From a virus, in IMG/VR virus record IMGVR_UViG_3300045988_053918, positions 1 to 54,149 of that record: a stretch of DNA of 54,149 nucleotides; one strand, written 5' to 3'. The notes under the pieces were generated by a model. That model was given only the letters and a program-made list of their open reading frames with translations. It did no database searches and had not been told where the DNA came from. A program made the translations under genes and the position numbers. Below, piece by piece: positions 2,363 to 46,003 of this stretch (positions are counted from its first letter, which is position 1; every line of letters starts with the position of its first letter).

Positions 2363-2884
2363 ATGAAAGAAAAAATAATTAACATATCCGCAACACTGGC
2401 AGGAATCAGCCTTATAGCGTTGATTCTAAGACCGGTACAGCCGCAAGCTAAGATTAATCAGCAGAGTGCAGTGTTAAGTGAATGCTACAACTCACATGTT
2501 GATTATAAGGTTGAAACTGGAGAGATAAGTGTTGATGAATATGAGCTGTCACTTATGGCACATTTACTGATGGGCGAATGCGGAGCGACATGCAACGATG
2601 ATGAAATGCTATATCTTGCAGGAGCCGTTGTTTTGAACCGAGTACAAAGTGAGTATTTTCCTAACAGCATTGAAGAAGTTATCTATCAATCAGGACAATA
2701 TCAATGTACAGAACTTAAAAACAGTGGATTCTATAAAGAGCCAACAGAAAGGTGTTGGAGAATAGCAGAAGAATTATTAATAAGCGGATATGACATACCT
2801 AGCAATGTGTTGTATCAAGCTGAATTTAAGCAAGGTAGCGGTGTTTATAAGAATGTGCAGAACATGTACTTTTGCTACAAGTAA
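2363..2884 (+). CDS. SleB/CwlJ-type cell wall hydrolase (Hydrolase_2-like) with N-terminal TM/signal segment
   Basis: LMGECGATCNDDEMLYLAGAVVLNRVQSEYFPNSIEEVIYQSGQYQC matches the SleB-family core; hydrophobic N-terminus. Confidence 0.75.
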   Translation: MKEKIINISATLAGISLIALILRPVQPQAKINQQSAVLSECYNSHVDYKVETGEISVDEYELSLMAHLLMGECGATCNDDEMLYLAGAVVLNRVQSEYFPNSIEEVIYQSGQYQCTELKNSGFYKEPTERCWRIAEELLISGYDIPSNVLYQAEFKQGSGVYKNVQNMYFCYK

Positions 2885-2893
2885 GGAGTGTTT

Positions 2894-3190
2894 ATGGAAG
2901 CAAGGATAAGAGAAGAAATGTTCAACTTAGGTATTCTCTCCAATAAAAAAGGTTACATCTACATAATTGAAGCTGTTAAACGGTTCAATTCTTCTATAAC
3001 AATGGAAGAAATTTACAATAGCATTGCCAGTACAGTAGGCAAGTCAAGATGTGCTGTTGAAAGGTCAATTAGAACAGCAATTAAATCAGCTAACCATGAT
3101 TTATCAGCATGGAAGAATTATGACTGTCTCACAGCAAGAGGGGTTATAACAACGATGTATTACAGACGTAAGGAGAATGCCAATGAGTAG
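2894..3190 (+). CDS. Spo0A C-terminal-domain-like DNA-binding protein
   Basis: LGILSNKKGYIYIIEAV...IYNSIASTVGKSRCAVERSIRTAIKSA resembles the Spo0A_C motif (GYxYL..AI...VERAIRHAI). Confidence 0.7.
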   Translation: MEARIREEMFNLGILSNKKGYIYIIEAVKRFNSSITMEEIYNSIASTVGKSRCAVERSIRTAIKSANHDLSAWKNYDCLTARGVITTMYYRRKENANE

Positions 3191-3335
3191 CATAAAAAGA
3201 ATTATTAAGCTGAACAGAAACAGGCAGAGAGCTATAAGAGAAAAGGATTTTAGAAAATTCTATACTTTCAGCTGCAAAATCCATTTGATTGAAAGAATGG
3301 ATAAAGTACCAATAGGAAGTTACATATTAAAGTAA
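3183..3335 (+). CDS. 50-aa basic hypothetical protein
   Basis: ATG overlaps the end of the previous gene; open to TAA 3333-3335; below the track cutoff. Confidence 0.4.
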   Translation: MSSIKRIIKLNRNRQRAIREKDFRKFYTFSCKIHLIERMDKVPIGSYILK

Positions 3336-3346
3336 GGAGAGGAAAA

Positions 3347-4003
3347 ATGGAAAATGTAATTAATAACAACAATATCACATTAGCAGGAGTAGTTGAGAAA
3401 GAGCCAGAGTACTCGCATGAAGTACTTGGCGAGGGGTTTTATGTGTTCATGCTCAAGTGTTCAAGAACAAGTGGTAACAAAGATATATTACCGGTAATTA
3501 TATCGGAAAGACTTACTGATATCACAGAAATTAAGGCGGGACAGGTTGTCACAGTTTTAGGGCAGATAAGGAGCTTCAACCGGCATGTTGATGATGTGAA
3601 GAGCAAGCTGATTTTATCTGTATTCGCAAGAGAGCTTGAAATACTAACACAGGACGCAACCGAACTACCATTTGAGGAAAATATTAATACAGTTATGCTT
3701 GACGCGCATATCTGCAAACCACCTATATACAGATGTACTCCAAAGGGCAGAGAGATTGCGGATATCTTAGTAGCAGTAAACAGACCATATGGCAAATCAG
3801 ATTACATACCATGTATAGCATGGGGAAGAAATGCGAGATTTGCAGGTGGGCTTGAAGTTGGAGAACACATTCAGATCCAGGGAAGATTCCAGAGCAGAGA
3901 GTACGCTAAGAAGATAAGTGACAATGAGATTGAAACAAGGGTTGCTTATGAAGTATCAGTAAGCAGAATTGATTACGCAGAGGAGGGTGAAGCCAATGCA
4001 TAG
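3347..4003 (+). CDS. Tandem OB-fold ssDNA-binding-like protein
   Basis: Two SSB-like halves (ITLAGVVEKEPE...; ...IPCIAWGRNARFAGGLEVGEHIQIQGRFQSREY); GGAGAGG RBS. Confidence 0.55.
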   Translation: MENVINNNNITLAGVVEKEPEYSHEVLGEGFYVFMLKCSRTSGNKDILPVIISERLTDITEIKAGQVVTVLGQIRSFNRHVDDVKSKLILSVFARELEILTQDATELPFEENINTVMLDAHICKPPIYRCTPKGREIADILVAVNRPYGKSDYIPCIAWGRNARFAGGLEVGEHIQIQGRFQSREYAKKISDNEIETRVAYEVSVSRIDYAEEGEANA

Positions 4004-4187: not shown

Positions 4188-4235
4188 ATAAGGAAAGGAT
4201 ATTGTTTATGAGAGCAACTTTAAAAAGGATAGCAC

Positions 4236-26022: not shown

Positions 26023-26094
26023 TGCACCATAGCCAAGCGGTAAGGCACAGAGCTTTGACCTCTGTATGCGTCGGTTCGAATCCGACTGGTGTAG
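26023..26094 (+). tRNA. tRNA-Gln (anticodon TTG)
   Basis: Cloverleaf folds by hand: acceptor TGCACCA/TGGTGTA (U1-A72), anticodon arm CAGAG-CTTTGAC-CTCTG, T-arm GTCGG-TTCGAAT-CCGAC. Confidence 0.85.
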
Positions 26095-26307: not shown

Positions 26308-26390
26308 GCCGATATGGGATAAAGGTATTCCAGTAGCTTGCTAAGCTATCCAACAGAAATGTTGTTCGTGTTCGATTCACGATGTCGGCG
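26308..26390 (+). tRNA. tRNA-Ser (anticodon GCT), class II
   Basis: Acceptor GCCGATA/TGTCGGC, anticodon arm GTAGC-TTGCTAA-GCTAT, long variable arm CAACA-GAAA-TGTTG, T-arm TCGTG-TTCGATT-CACGA. Confidence 0.8.
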
Positions 26391-26810: not shown

Positions 26811-26882
26811 CGGATAGTAGTTCAGTTGGGAGTAACGCTTGATTTATTCAAGTAGTCACAGGTTCAAGTCCTGTCTATCCGA
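26811..26882 (+). tRNA. tRNA with a UUA (ochre-reading) anticodon; non-canonical anticodon loop, possibly a pseudo-tRNA
   Basis: Acceptor CGGATAG/CTATCCG, T-arm ACAGG-TTCAAGT-CCTGT, anticodon arm GCTTG-ATTTATT-CAAGT (U33, TTA, but T at position 37); weak D-stem. Confidence 0.5.
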
Positions 26883-27004
26883 TTACAACAAACTAGGTTA
26901 GCTACCGAAAAGCACTTCCGCTGTGCCTGTTTGTTGTTTTTATCAATTAAGCGGAGTATGTATCACAGGCATGCATAAATAATATCAAGCGGAGGTATTC
27001 GATT

Positions 27005-27961
27005 ATGGCAACAATTAGAGTGCATAAAACAAAAAATTACACAGTTATGAGTAATACTCATTTAAGAGATAAGAACTTAAGCTTGAAAGCAAAAGGATTA
27101 TTGTCTGTAATGCTTTCATTGCCCGATAATTGGGATTATTCAATAGTTGGGTTAGTTACAATAAGCAAAGAGAATGAAACAGCCGTTAAATCGGCTTTAA
27201 ACGAGTTAAAGGATAATAATTATGTTGTGGTTACCAAAGAAAACCCAACAAAAAACAATGGTGGAAGAATAAAGTACACTTACGAGGTTTACGAAGAACC
27301 ATATAAACAGAAAATAGAAAAACAAGATACAGAAAATCTAGGGGTTGAACACCAACAGGTAGAAAACCACGGACAATTAAATACTAATGAATTAAGTACT
27401 GATGAATTAAATATTAATATACAAAATACTAATGAATTAAATACTAAAAGTAATTCTCTTAACAGAGAACAATGCAATTCTTTTTTACCCAAAGATAAAA
27501 AAGCAAAAGAGTTTAAGCCGATAAGCGAATACTCTCAAAGTGATTGGGAAGTTGCCGAAGAAAGAATGATAAGTAGAGCTGGCAAGATAGCTTATGATTG
27601 GACTAATGATAAAACACTTAAAGAAAATGTAGAAGCATTCTTTAAATACTTTTTAGATAAACACGGAGAATGTACTGGAGAATATCACTACCCATTAACA
27701 GATAAGGTTTTATCAAGAGTAGTAGATAATTTAACAAAAGAAACTGACATAGAGCGTGACGGATATACAGATACCTATTATGCGGCTATAAGTGATATGG
27801 ACGATAATACAGACTACAAGATGTTGGTTGATGAATATTTCAACACAAAGTTTTCAGCACAATGTGATTACAGCTTAGTTCACTTTTCTTCTGAAAAGGT
27901 TTTAATTAACATTATGAACCACGCTTGTAAAAGTAGCTGGTGTGAAAGCAAAGAATTGTAA
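27005..27961 (+). CDS. Winged-HTH replication-initiator-like protein
   Basis: MATIRVHKTKNYTVMSNTHLRDKNLSLKAKGLLSVMLSLPDNWDYSIVGL...ALNELKDNNYV; GGAGGT RBS. Confidence 0.5.
   Translation: MATIRVHKTKNYTVMSNTHLRDKNLSLKAKGLLSVMLSLPDNWDYSIVGLVTISKENETAVKSALNELKDNNYVVVTKENPTKNNGGRIKYTYEVYEEPYKQKIEKQDTENLGVEHQQVENHGQLNTNELSTDELNINIQNTNELNTKSNSLNREQCNSFLPKDKKAKEFKPISEYSQSDWEVAEERMISRAGKIAYDWTNDKTLKENVEAFFKYFLDKHGECTGEYHYPLTDKVLSRVVDNLTKETDIERDGYTDTYYAAISDMDDNTDYKMLVDEYFNTKFSAQCDYSLVHFSSEKVLINIMNHACKSSWCESKEL
27382..27440. repeat. Iteron-like direct repeats inside the Rep-like gene
   Basis: TACTAATGAATTAA (27382), TACTGATGAATTAA (27397), TACTAATGAATTAA (27427). Confidence 0.75.
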
Positions 27962-41925: not shown

Positions 41926-43197
41926 GTGGAATTAGATTCATTAGAAGTCAAAATTACCGGTGCTGCCACGAAAGCTATCAATTCCGTCGATAAACTGATA
42001 AATCAGCTTACAAGGCTGTCAACATCACTTGCAACTGTGAATGGCTCTTCACTAAGTAGCCTTGCAAATGGTGTTAGCCAGTTAGGTTCTGCTATGCAGA
42101 ATATGAACGCAGGAACAGCAGATTTTACAAGGCTTGCTAAGAACATCACAAAGATAGGTTCTGTTGATTCAGTTGCACTAACTAACACAGCTACATCACT
42201 TCAGGCTGTCACAAAGGCAGTTGCAAGCATATCAGCTATTCCGCAAAATGCAACGCAGGTCACAGAATTTGCAAAGTCACTTGGTAAGCTAGGCAGTAAG
42301 AGCATAGAAAACGCCGTTGTAAACATTCCAAAGCTAGGCAATGCTTTAAATGGCTTAATGACAACGCTATCAAGAGCACCAACAGTAAGTCAAAATGTTA
42401 TTCAAATGACTAACGCATTGGCTAATCTTGCTAGTCAAGGTAGCAAGGTGGGTACTTCTTCAAACTCACTTCAAAAAACGCTGTATGGCGTTTCTACAAG
42501 TGCTAGAACAGCAACTAGAAGTAGTTGGAACTTAGCAAGTGCAATAGGTAAGTTTTATGCCACTTATTTTATGGTAATTCGTGGCAGCAAAAAACTTATA
42601 GAAGCCATCAAATCAACAACAGATTACATCGAAGCGTTCAACTATCAAGCGGTTGCGTTTGGTAAGATTGGTTCAGAGTGGGATAAGGATTACGAAAAGT
42701 ACGGATATGATAACGCAACAGCATATGCAGAAAGTTTTAAAAGTAGAGTAAATGATACTCTTGGAAAACTATCTGGCTTAAAAGTCAATGTTCAAGGCGG
42801 ATTGCTTGAAGAAAGTGGAACAAAGAACTTAGGACTTAATATACAAGAGATAACGCAGTACGCTTCACAGTTAGCTTCTGTCACTAACTCATTAGGGCAG
42901 ACAGGCGAAGCGACAACAGCAATAACAAAGTCAATGACAATGCTTGCAGGCGATATAAGCTCACTTTTTAATGTGGACTATTCAACGGTTGCACAGAACT
43001 TACAAAGTGGCTTAATCGGTCAATCGAGAGCATTGTATAAGTATGGTATTGATATTACTAACGCTACATTAGCGACATATGCTTATAACTTGGGAATTTC
43101 CAAGTCTGTATCAGAAATGACACAGATGGAAAAACAGCAGTTAAGAGTGTTAGCAATATTAGACCAAAGTAAAGTATCTTGGGGTGATTTAGCTAAT
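41926..43197 (+). CDS. Tape measure protein, exon 1
   Basis: GTG start after AGGGGG; ends ...SWGDLAN; the 16 codons read beyond 43197 look like intron read-through. Confidence 0.7.
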
Positions 43198-43537
43198 AAA
43201 CGGAAGAAAGTTAATGATATAGCTTATCTTCCAAGTGTTGCATAAGAATAGAAATATCTTATGACAATCGGGCAAAATCGGTAAAGGCTAAAGTTTTCAA
43301 CTATGCTAATACCGAGATAACTCAATAGATTACGAACAGGCTATTGAGTATCGTAACGAGTAGGAATTGAATAAATATAATATTCCCAAGAGTGTCCGAC
43401 ACTACTGTATATAGGACAGTATGAGGTGGAAGTGGCTACCACCAAACCAAACATAATGATGTGGGTGATAATGTACTCTGAACTTATAGGAAACTATAAG
43501 AAGTATAGGATAAAGAGCCTATACGATAACAAATTTG
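43198..43537 (+). ncRNA. Candidate ORF-less self-splicing (group I-like) intron in the tape measure gene
   Basis: 340 nt (1 mod 3) restores the frame; exon 1 ends in U (43197) and the insert ends in G (43537); several stable hairpins; stops in all frames. Confidence 0.5.
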
Positions 43538-46003
43538 ACAATCAACTCCCCAAGTAATATGTTACGCCAGTTCAGTAACAATATGAAAGAGGTAGGAATG
43601 GTAGCAGGACAGCTATTTATCCCAATTCTTTCAAAGGTTATGCCAGTTGTAAACGGCGTTACTATTGCAATCAAAAGATTATTAGTCAACCTTGCTTCTT
43701 TAATGGGCGTAAAGATTGACTTTGAAAGCTTCGGACAAAGTGGCTATAAAGACACATCAGACGGCTTAGAAGATATTTCAGATGGCTACAAAGATGTAGC
43801 TGATTCGGCAAAGAAAGCTACATTATCCCTTATGGGATTTGATGAAATAAATAAATTACAGGACGATACAAGCTCAAGCAAAGGCTCAAGCGGTGGCGGT
43901 GGTAGCACTATTGATTTGACAGATGATATTACTAAGGCGGCGGCTGATTATGAAGCGGCGTGGAATAAAGCATTTGCCAATATGGAAAATTCAGCGGTTG
44001 CTTGGGCTGATAGAATTGAGAAAATTCTTGACCCAATCACAAAACCCCTTAAGAAGTTTGCTATGGACGTAAAATTAGGAGACTGGTTTGAGGCAGGGCA
44101 AGATATTAATGAATTTGTTACGGCTGTTTTTAATACAATCGAAAAAATTATTGATAAGGTTGACTGGGAGAAATTAGGCGAAAATATTGGAGATTTTCTT
44201 GCAGGACTTGATTGGGTAGATATCTTATTTAAAGCGCTTAAGCTAAAATTTAAGATATGGGAAGCTATAGCAAAGGTTATTAAGGAAAGTTTCAAAAAAG
44301 CACCGCTTGAAACAGCTATAATAGCAGGTTTTGCACTTCTTAATTATACAAGAATCGGTAAATTTATCGGCGGTCAAATTGCGAAGAAAATCACTATAGA
44401 TACAGCTAAGACAGTTATAACAACAGGCGGATTAAAGAGTGCATGGGAAACAATAGTAATCAAATCTATGTACGCACTTGACACATTATCAGCTTCAACA
44501 GTCATTCCTGTTGGCATTGTTGCTAGTATCTATATCGCTTCAACAATTTTTGCTGCAAAGGGAATAAAAAAATACTTAGGAAACGATAGCAAGCTACATA
44601 AATGGTTCGAAACGGAAGTACTTGGAATTGACGAAAAAGGTTATGTAACAACAGTTACAGCGGATTGCACAAGGGCAGAAGAAGGAGTATCTAAGCTGAA
44701 ATCGCAGATTGACGGGCTTAAGGATACTGTAATCAATATTGATGTAAACGATAAAAGCAGTATTGATAAGGCAAACGAAACACTTGTAGATACTATCAAT
44801 CAGAAAAACATTGCTAATAAGCAATTCCAACAGGTCTCTAAAGATTATAAGAAGATACAGAGTACGCTTGAGAAGTACATTACCAAATTGTACAAAGGTA
44901 GCGTAGATGAATTTTATGATTTTTACGGACAGACAAATGATCTGTCTGACATGTCGCAGCTATATGAAGTGCTTACAACAATTGGTTCAGGAAACAGCAA
45001 AGTACTTAATCAGATGTATGACGAACTTGGAACGCATAATGTTAGCGACATTAAAAAGGTTCAAAGTTCTTATAATTCACTTAAAGAAGAAATTGACGAT
45101 TGCAATAAAACCATTGCACAGTTAAGTCCTACAATAGACGAAAGCATATCAGCCTATGAAGAGCTTAACGATACAACTTACGAATACACCACATCTGCTA
45201 CACAGCATTATCATGATATGGTAGTTAGTTCAAAGGCTGCAATAAGTGAATTGACAATGGCAGCAAGTGACGGAGCAAATGCGTTTTCTAACAGCTACAG
45301 AGAAGCATTTGACAAGACAAAACTTGATGGAACTAATACTTTTACATCAGTAGAGGAAACTGTCAAGGCGCTTTCACAGTCAGCCGGTATAAATGGCGGT
45401 AATCAATTATACACAATGTTTGATGATAGAATTGCGAACATACCAGAAGCAACAAGACGTGCATTTTCCAACATTGTAGGGCAAATAAACGCCGGCAATA
45501 TCGGATATGACGAAGGAGAATCTCTTGCAGAGAATATTATGTCTGGCTTTAACGCTAGTGCATGGCGCTTTACTGATTCAGTTCAAGCAACTTTAAGGGA
45601 AGCATTTTCGATTGATGTTGATATCAATGCAGATATTGACCCTAGTAAAATGACACCAAGTGAAATAAATAGAGGTGGAGCAATTAATTTCGGTAAGATA
45701 AAGATTGCACCTAAATATGCAGTGGGCGGATTCCCAGAAGATGGATTCTTTTTTGCTAATCATAATGAAATGGTTGGCAAGTTTAGTAATGGCAAAACAG
45801 CAGTTGCAAACAATGAACAGATAACAGATGGCATTAAGCAAGCTGTTATTGAGGGCATGTCAGAAGTATTTGCTAATGCAAATATAGGTCAGCAAAACGG
45901 AAACATTGTTGTACAGATTGACGGACAGGAAGTGTTCAGAACAACACAGAGATATGCCAATCAGTATACAGCTATGACAGGACAGCCGGCATTTAATATT
46001 TAA
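43538..46003 (+). CDS. Tape measure protein, exon 2
   Basis: Begins TINSPSNMLRQFSNN..., giving GDLAN|TINSPSN at the junction; no RBS before the TTG the track uses as a start. Confidence 0.7.
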   Translation, partial: TINSPSNMLRQFSNNMKEVGMVAGQLFIPILSKVMPVVNGVTIAIKRLLVNLASLMGVKIDFESFGQSGYKDTSDGLEDISDGYKDVADSAKKATLSLMGFDEINKLQDDTSSSKGSSGGGGSTIDLTDDITKAAADYEAAWNKAFANMENSAVAWADRIEKILDPITKPLKKFAMDVKLGDWFEAGQDINEFVTAVFNTIEKIIDKVDWEKLGENIGDFLAGLDWVDILFKALKLKFKIWEAIAKVIKESFKKAPLETAIIAGFALLNYTRIGKFIGGQIAKKITIDTAKTVITTGGLKSAWETIVIKSMYALDTLSASTVIPVGIVASIYIASTIFAAKGIKKYLGNDSKLHKWFETEVLGIDEKGYVTTVTADCTRAEEGVSKLKSQIDGLKDTVINIDVNDKSSIDKANETLVDTINQKNIANKQFQQVSKDYKKIQSTLEKYITKLYKGSVDEFYDFYGQTNDLSDMSQLYEVLTTIGSGNSKVLNQMYDELGTHNVSDIKKVQSSYNSLKEEIDDCNKTIAQLSPTIDESISAYEELNDTTYEYTTSATQHYHDMVVSSKAAISELTMAASDGANAFSNSYREAFDKTKLDGTNTFTSVEETVKALSQSAGINGGNQLYTMFDDRIANIPEATRRAFSNIVGQINAGNIGYDEGESLAENIMSGFNASAWRFTDSVQATLREAFSIDVDINADIDPSKMTPSEINRGGAINFGKIKIAPKYAVGGFPEDGFFFANHNEMVGKFSNGKTAVANNEQITDGIKQAVIEGMSEVFANANIGQQNGNIVVQIDGQEVFRTTQRYANQYTAMTGQPAFNI

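Follow-up and report, generated by a model that had tools for sequence, protein, structure and literature searches.

Evidence for an intact, endonuclease-less group I intron in a phage tape measure protein gene

In the stretch of viral DNA analysed here (54,149 nt, called the window throughout), the gene for the tape measure protein (TMP) is interrupted at positions 43198 to 43537 by an insert that is very probably a structurally intact group I intron without an endonuclease gene. Judged from the features of the predicted RNA, the intron is probably splicing competent. The initial annotation of this DNA had described group I-like boundaries and had left the class of the insert unproven; our data support both the exact boundaries and the assignment to group I.

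Two open reading frames and one tape measure protein

The initial annotation regarded the ORFs 41926..43245 (439 aa) and 43535..46003 (822 aa, TTG start), both of which are present in the ORF list, as the halves of one TMP, and contiguous matches to a PHROG profile as well as homologues that are continuous across the site agree with this view. Removal of exactly 43198-43537 (340 nt, 1 mod 3), which had also been proposed, indeed unites the two frames and yields a single open frame of 1245 codons that reads ...SKVSWGDLAN^TINSPSNMLRQF (the caret marks the junction here and below). The predicted spliced-junction DNA is GATTTAGCTAAT^ACAATCAACTCC (...GCUAAU^ACAAUC... in the RNA), and the TMP peptide predicted across the junction is ...WGDLANTINSPSNMLR. 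The interrupted gene is composed as follows.

41926..43197, + strand: TMP exon 1; 424 codons, GTG start, ends ...SWGDLAN with AAT, last base U (ORF list, spliced translation, PHROG)
43198..43537, + strand: very probable group I intron; 340 nt, ORF-less (RF00028 match, covariation in 16 relatives, fold z, empty-site alleles)
43538..46003, + strand: TMP exon 2; 821 codons plus stop, starts TINSPSNM (spliced translation, PHROG)

Against the profile phrog_28918, exon 1 matched positions 2-192 and exon 2 positions 193-465, the two matches adjoining exactly. The TMP profile phrog_1535 was matched colinearly (exon 1 at 2-345, exon 2 at 360-619), and the match of the TMP to Pfam TMP_3 was weak. With a 238-aa query across the junction, 69 relatives were retrieved from 5.8 billion proteins, and the best 17 of them were aligned. 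Twelve of these 17 run continuously through DLAN^TINSPSN, and intron-less alleles are gap-free over the junction at the level of DNA, too (L001, 91-94% identical; L002, 77%; L160, 92% over 849 nt). In two of the 17 (P0009 and P0015), DLAN is followed by the terminal residues R(R)KK...LPSVA, encoded by the first 45 nt of the insert, and three start downstream of the site, among them P0012, whose start lies within the 3' part of the insert. The insertion site is located inside the most conserved block of the TMP, SKVxWGDLAxTIxxPxN. The "TTG start" at 43535 is an artefact of the ORF finder that arises from the last three intron bases. Taken together, the sequence comparisons argue that the insert junction is not coincidental and that the split ORFs are one TMP gene.

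The neighbourhood of the TMP gene comprises genes for the large terminase, portal, major head and major tail proteins, two short ORFs, the TMP itself and tail proteins, with the major tail protein upstream of the TMP and a 1156-aa tail protein downstream; the locus is a complete head-tail module, and its genes are those of a normal late module of the siphovirus type. The two short ORFs upstream of the TMP matched no named chaperone family, and their label as chaperones is therefore positional.

Three observations concern the TMP gene and its relatives beyond the junction. First, the window is 90-95% identical to more than 10 related viral contigs from about 39400 onward, and this similarity ends at 44019-44024, ~485 nt into exon 2, a pattern that resembles a mosaic or recombination boundary common to these contigs within the TMP gene. 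Second, the intron-less TMP-like segment of the Logan contig L001 (3972-4462, ~490 nt) adjoins bacterial Mur ligase, TPR and STAS sequences and then unrelated sequence; a chimera of the assembly or the reuse of a TMP module may account for this. Third, in contig L004 (1631-1907; P0013), the site is empty and the similarity breaks off seven codons further on (TIESPSNQK, then unrelated sequence). A second intron just downstream in L004 was considered and detected neither by Rfam nor by the nhmmer family profile; hence, a frameshift or an assembly error is the likely cause of the break.

Similarity of the insert to known RNA families

A scan for Rfam families near the insert, which the initial annotation had named as a check, gave support with one reservation. 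In a local scan of 751 nt, the match to the group I model RF00028 at 43220-43500 spanned the entire model (positions 1-253) with an E value of 5e-9, and neither group II nor any other plausible Rfam family appeared even at E ≤ 10, but the score of 41.2 bits lies below the gathering score of 50. When the whole window was scanned with Rfam, at E ≤ 0.05 or at the gathering score, the intron was missed because of the speed filters. Related introns score higher: L102, a relative at the same site (93% identical), reached 49.1 bits, and the TMP intron of Lactobacillus phage JCL1032 reached 59.4 bits and, thus, exceeded the gathering score. In the Rfam alignment, P7 of the window intron is GAGUA/UACUC where the consensus has GACUA/UAGUC; both strands are altered and the pairing is kept.

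The insert matched 154 phage records in a blastn search (63 of Streptococcus, 26 of Staphylococcus, 19 of Bacillus, 16 of Clostridium, and others), and among the matches listed, two lie under annotated TMP genes, those of Staphylococcus phage 6ec and Lactobacillus phage JCL1032. Its GC content is 34.7%, compared to 36.7% for the window. As the initial annotation had stated, it has no ORF and stops in every frame; stop codons are found in all six frames, and no reverse-transcriptase ORF is present. A second copy of the family was not found elsewhere in the 54,149-nt window with the nhmmer family profile. Some other contigs are richer in the family: L108 (279 kb), L138 and L110 (127 kb), all of them IMG/VR contigs, have at least 7 matches to the 3' part of the family (P7'-P9-P9.1) within a few kilobases, which suggests genes with many introns of this kind.

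Splice sites

The last base before the insert (43197) is T (U in the RNA) and the last base of the insert (43537) is G, as the initial annotation had pointed out, and the same rule holds in the relatives. Since 43198 and 43538 are both A, the alignment of the junction is ambiguous by one base; the group I rule of a U before the intron and a G at its end fixes the boundaries at 43197^43198 and 43537^43538. U43197 stands opposite G43237 and forms a U.G wobble in the pairing of UAAU^A with UGUUG. Exon 1 ends with AAT in 22 of 22 intron-bearing alleles, as the required U.G wobble predicts, whereas empty sites have AAT, AAC, AAA or AAG. The terminal G of the intron is kept in all relatives, even where the length of the 3' tail shifts by 1 nt. 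The apparent conservation of the peptide RRKK...LPSVA, which results from read-through, can be put down to constraints on the RNA, as its codons lie in P1a and the IGS.

Secondary structure of the intron

The helices of the predicted ribozyme are listed below, with intron nucleotide n corresponding to window position 43197+n.

43194..43240, + strand: P1; exon UAAU (43194-43197) and A43198 with the IGS UGUUG (43236-43240; nt 39-43)
43201-43207 with 43227-43232 and 43235, + strand: P1a, inner extension, CGGAAGA with UCUUCC..G; one double-sided compensated change
43241..43263 (nt 44-50/60-66), + strand: P2 hairpin, CAUAAGA/UCUUAUG; two compensated pairs
43268..43273 with 43394..43399 (nt 71-76/197-202), + strand: P3, UCGGGC with GUCCGA; Rfam alignment, MFE, invariant in relatives
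43278-43282/43311-43315 (nt 81-85/114-118), + strand: P4, encloses P5; one compensated pair
43286-43307 (nt 89-110), + strand: P5, loop 43296-43298; one compensated pair
43320..43349 (nt 123-131/144-152), + strand: P6 hairpin, ACUCAAUAG/CUAUUGAGU; C-G to U-A in 4 sequences, MFE
43358..43362 with 43474..43478 (nt 161-165/277-281), + strand: P7, GAGUA with UACUC; Rfam alignment, family-wide covariation
43363..43386 (nt 166-170/185-189), + strand: P7.1 hairpin, GGAAU/AUUCC, between P7 and P3'; three compensated pairs
43400..43467 (nt 203-270), + strand: P8 domain, stem CACU/GGUG around the hairpins 43404-43420, 43425-43443 and 43451-43462; MFE
43483..43500 (nt 286-303), + strand: P9 hairpin, GAAA tetraloop 43490-43493; Rfam, MFE, invariant
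43503-43524 (nt 306-327), + strand: P9.1 hairpin; one compensated pair
ending at 43537, + strand: 3' tail GAUAACAAAUUUG, terminal G43537 (G340) conserved

The MFE fold, obtained with no prior input, recovers P1a, P2, P3, P4, P5, P6, P7.1, the three P8 hairpins, P9 and P9.1, and its energy of -88.8 kcal/mol is far below that of shuffled sequences (-63.2 ± 4.5 kcal/mol; z = -5.68). P7, the guanosine-binding helix, forms a pseudoknot with P3. The in-frame UAA at 43243-43245, at which read-through from exon 1 ends, lies within P2. P10 is weak, with 2 bp between exon AC and GU 43235-43236 (G38-U39), and the 3' element made up of P9.1 and the tail was found in more than 120 viral contigs. Two further contacts were assigned by eye from the architecture of group I introns: UU 43535-43536 presumably pairs with AA 43481-43482 (nt 338-339/284-285) as P9.0, and CUAAAG...UAUG in P5 resembles a tetraloop receptor, which we take to face the GAAA loop of L9.

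The three strong hairpins that the initial annotation had listed all proved to be real; they correspond to P6 (43321-43328/43341-43348), to a hairpin of the P8 domain (43425-43429/43439-43443) and to P9.1 (43503-43509/43518-43524). The elements that had been missed by eye are the IGS UGUUG at 43236-43240 and P7 at 43358-43362/43474-43478.

The hallmark of group IA introns in the Michel-Westhof classification is an extra helix or helices (P7.1/P7.2) between the 5' strand of P7 and P3'. This feature is present in the form of a hairpin at 43363-43386, the only such helix that was found. By its predicted architecture, the intron thus appears to be of the phage IA type, either IA1 or IA2.

Covariation among relatives

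For the covariation analysis, 16 distinct copies of the intron at this site were drawn from metagenomic and viral contigs and stripped of any endonuclease ORF; they were aligned by hand and pairs were counted over 84 pairs, or 1344 pair cells. Standard pairs occupy 99.4% of the 1344 cells, and 13 of the 84 pairs are altered on both sides with the pairing kept. The latter are located in P1a, P2, P4, P5, P6, P7.1, two P8 hairpins and P9.1; within the P8 domain, it is the first and the third hairpin that covary. None of 500 shuffles gave a value as high, and sliding the 3' partners by 1 to 3 columns left 0 to 3 such pairs. Because the copies are closely related (mean column identity, 90%), the shuffles make the result look more significant than it is, and the slid alignments are the better yardstick; the 13 compensated pairs lie well above these, too.

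Among the 16 copies, no variation is seen in P3, P7, P9 or the middle P8 hairpin, and here the support comes from conservation and from the Rfam alignment. In the wider family, P7 occurs in three complementary forms within the same sequence context (GAGUA/UACUC, GACUA/UAGUC and GCAUA/UAUGC). The IGS is invariant in 16 of 16 relatives at the same site, and a U-to-C change in the exon at position -4 leaves the P1 pairing intact. A rival guide, GUUA at 43210-43213 (nt 13-16), which could pair with the exon over 4 bp, was discarded, since L003 and L033 have the same exon sequence but do not retain it.

Endonuclease-bearing, broken and empty states of the site

The window copy contains no ORF for an intron-encoded homing endonuclease, as is evident from the stops in its six frames. 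Several relatives do have such a gene, in every case in the P5 loop, at a position that falls between 43300 and 43301 of the window. Two more distant copies at the same site, L003 and, from a Ructibacterium MAG, L033, have TMPs ~50-80% identical to that of the window and carry a 233-aa ORF with GIY-YIG and NUMOD1 domains. L076, L131, L134 and L126, which are 90-97% identical over the intron RNA, carry a GIY-YIG and NUMOD1 ORF of 310/311 aa, and the two ORF types are 35% identical to each other. In L098, the intron is 96-98% identical and the GIY-YIG ORF (about 2676-3580) is broken into 103 and 158 aa, which likely represents a decaying endonuclease gene. At least 14 copies, 94-99% identical, are endonuclease-less. 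Since these relatives encode a GIY-YIG and NUMOD1 endonuclease and the window copy does not, the latter represents a mobile lineage in its endonuclease-less form.

Copies with an endonuclease gene have a P5 that is lengthened by AGUUUUCA/UGAAAACU. Compared to them, the window form looks like the product of a near-precise deletion between A-rich junctions (...UUUUCAA^CUAUG..., with the caret here at the deletion point); the opposite direction, insertion into an ORF-less form, is possible as well. The AUG of the 233-aa ORF lies within a perfect 8-bp stem, UUAUGUAU/AUACAUAA, that lengthens P5 (L003 1049-1065/1759-1772; L033 3480-3495/about 4190-4205), and the start codon of this endonuclease may be sequestered by the stem. 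A separate observation concerns the first 18 nt of exon 2 (43538-43555), which differ from L001 4226-4243 by 7 synonymous changes (ACAATCAACTCCCCAAGT versus ACGATTAACAGTCCATCA), although the intron-less L001 is otherwise 91-94% identical; intron-bearing alleles with far more divergent TMPs retain nearly the version of the window. A co-conversion tract, or a variation of the target site that affects the endonuclease, is a possible source of this difference.

An unbiased scan with one genome per species yielded 30 homologues of the TMP gene from Lachnospiraceae and other Clostridia, plus one MAG with the label Muribaculaceae, and among these the site is interrupted in L033 only. Empty, endonuclease-bearing, broken and endonuclease-less states thus coexist, which points to the standard invasion-and-decay cycle that Tourasse and Kolsto discuss (2008, PMC2504315). 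The setting of this cycle is phages of gut Clostridia (Lachnospiraceae-type).

Model of splicing and homing

In our model, whose splicing and homing steps follow from standard group I chemistry and from the domains of the endonucleases, the intron RNA in the late transcript would fold into the P1-P9.1 ribozyme, and the IGS UGUUG (43236-43240) would pair with exon UAAU^A and place U43197 in a G.U wobble. P7 would bind an exogenous guanosine, which would then attack the 5' splice site, after which the terminal G43537 would take the G site and the 3'-OH of exon 1 would attack the 3' splice site. The ligation of ...GCUAAU to ACAAUC... would result in one TMP of 1245 aa. The UAA at 43243-43245 may serve to halt ribosomes that enter the unspliced intron. 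In the relatives, the GIY-YIG enzyme would cut intron-less TMP alleles and thereby drive homing; the window copy would be immobile alone and may spread passively or with an endonuclease provided in trans by a co-infecting relative.

A decayed, splicing-dead remnant in a TMP pseudogene of a defective prophage could look similar at first sight, as the intron has lost its homing endonuclease gene, its Rfam score stays under the threshold and the phage itself may not be viable. We consider this improbable: the core helices are all intact, the compensated pairs are kept across at least 14 endonuclease-less copies with 94-99% identity, both exons are open over 1245 codons and the element sits in a complete head-tail module. 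We assign a negligible probability to the view that the locus holds two separate genes or a non-intron insertion without RNA splicing, with ribosomal bypassing, a group II intron or a small mobile element as candidates. Public gene callers do split loci of this kind into two ORFs (P0009, P0012), but the insert fits the group I model, has no match to group II families at E ≤ 10, is devoid of a reverse-transcriptase ORF, far exceeds with its 340 nt the gap of 50 nt stated for T4 bypassing (10.1101/2022.08.31.505936), and is absent from homologues that form one continuous protein. A structurally intact group I intron hence accounts best for the insert.

Comparison with known introns

The standard model of homing is the T4 td intron with its GIY-YIG endonuclease I-TevI, which has a modular DNA-binding region; it resides in a gene of nucleotide metabolism in a phage of Gram-negative bacteria, and its ORF is located in the P6 region rather than in P5. 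It resembles our case in that a group I intron of a phage is combined with a homing endonuclease of the GIY-YIG type, seen here in the relatives of the window copy; the td intron had no detectable match in the blastn search with the insert. In Streptococcus thermophilus phages, Foley et al. in 2000 (cited in PMC11878797) reportedly found, to go by their title, a group I intron in the lysin gene and "three deletion derivatives", so that ORF-bearing and ORF-less forms occur side by side in one phage population. The insert of the window matches 63 Streptococcus phage records (47 with S. thermophilus as host), counted as whole-record matches, but the host gene of the intron of Foley et al. is lysin and that of the window intron is the TMP gene.

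Closer parallels exist in the two phages with annotated TMP genes. The TMP of Lactobacillus delbrueckii phage JCL1032 (ORF17) is annotated as a two-piece join, and its intron is ORF-less like that of the window and shares the P9 / P9.1 / GAUAAC...G 3' element with 84% identity; it differs in the junction (GELANR^DGTRAG, read by eye), in P7 (GACUA/UAGUC) and in its single P8 hairpin. In Staphylococcus phage 6ec, the TMP is annotated as two CDSs that flank an endonuclease gene, which fits the reading as a group I intron. The endonuclease ORF starts just past a GAAGGCUAAG segment that resembles the 5' strand of P5 in the window, and the 3' third of the intron is 77.5% identical to the window intron. 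Differences are the HNH instead of a GIY-YIG endonuclease, the junction (QLG^NNMAT, read by eye), P7 (GCAUA/UAUGC) and, again, a single P8 hairpin. A tblastn comparison of the spliced window TMP with the JCL1032 and 6ec loci gave no significant similarity, and therefore, homology of the window site with the sites in these phages cannot be claimed.

The initial annotation held that self-splicing introns are not known as typical of tape measure genes. This has to be corrected, as precedents exist in the Bacillus cereus group (PMC2504315), in the JCL1032 join and in the 6ec split. In prophages of the B. cereus group, IA1/IA2 group I introns occupy three sites of the TMP gene (TMP-IVS1/2/3), several of them without a complete endonuclease gene, and the JCL1032 TMP intron is listed among their relatives (Tourasse and Kolsto 2008, PMC2504315). 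Like these, the window intron is of the IA type, lies in a TMP gene (theirs encode prophage proteins of >1200 aa) within a conserved stretch, and has an IGS and P1 fitted to the site. Unlike them, it belongs to gut Clostridia/Lachnospiraceae rather than Bacillus, and its lineage has a three-hairpin P8; homology of the sites is not claimed here either.

A tentative possibility, which we rate as rather less likely than its opposite, is that the window intron represents a sub-lineage of IA introns, hitherto undescribed and widespread in phages of gut Clostridia. Such a sub-lineage would have P8 as a three-hairpin domain and a P5 loop that was taken independently by two GIY-YIG endonucleases (35% identical), and by an HNH enzyme in 6ec, and its abundant endonuclease-less copies might persist by trans-homing, via co-circulating endonuclease-bearing variants that are aimed at the same invariant TMP motif.

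Other RNA features of the window

Outside the late module, the window contains three tRNA genes (26023-26094, 26308-26390 and 26811-26882). Four bases past the last of them, at 26886-26952, is a match to the int-alpA RNA of Rfam with 45.3 bits, which is above its gathering score, and a 318-aa ORF (27005-27961) follows this match.

Implications

As TMP group I introns are already documented, the case of the window is well supported but ordinary, and it changes nothing in what is known of group I introns or of tape measure genes in general. For annotation, the TMP of this phage should be given as one protein of 1245 aa, not as two genes, and in related contigs, too, the TMP is split in public gene calls (P0009, P0012, P0015). 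The default threshold and filters of Rfam miss the intron, and hence, the lineage is probably under-annotated in gut viromes. With empty, intact GIY-YIG-bearing, broken and ORF-less forms, one phage lineage offers a natural series that is useful for studies of the turnover of introns and their endonucleases.
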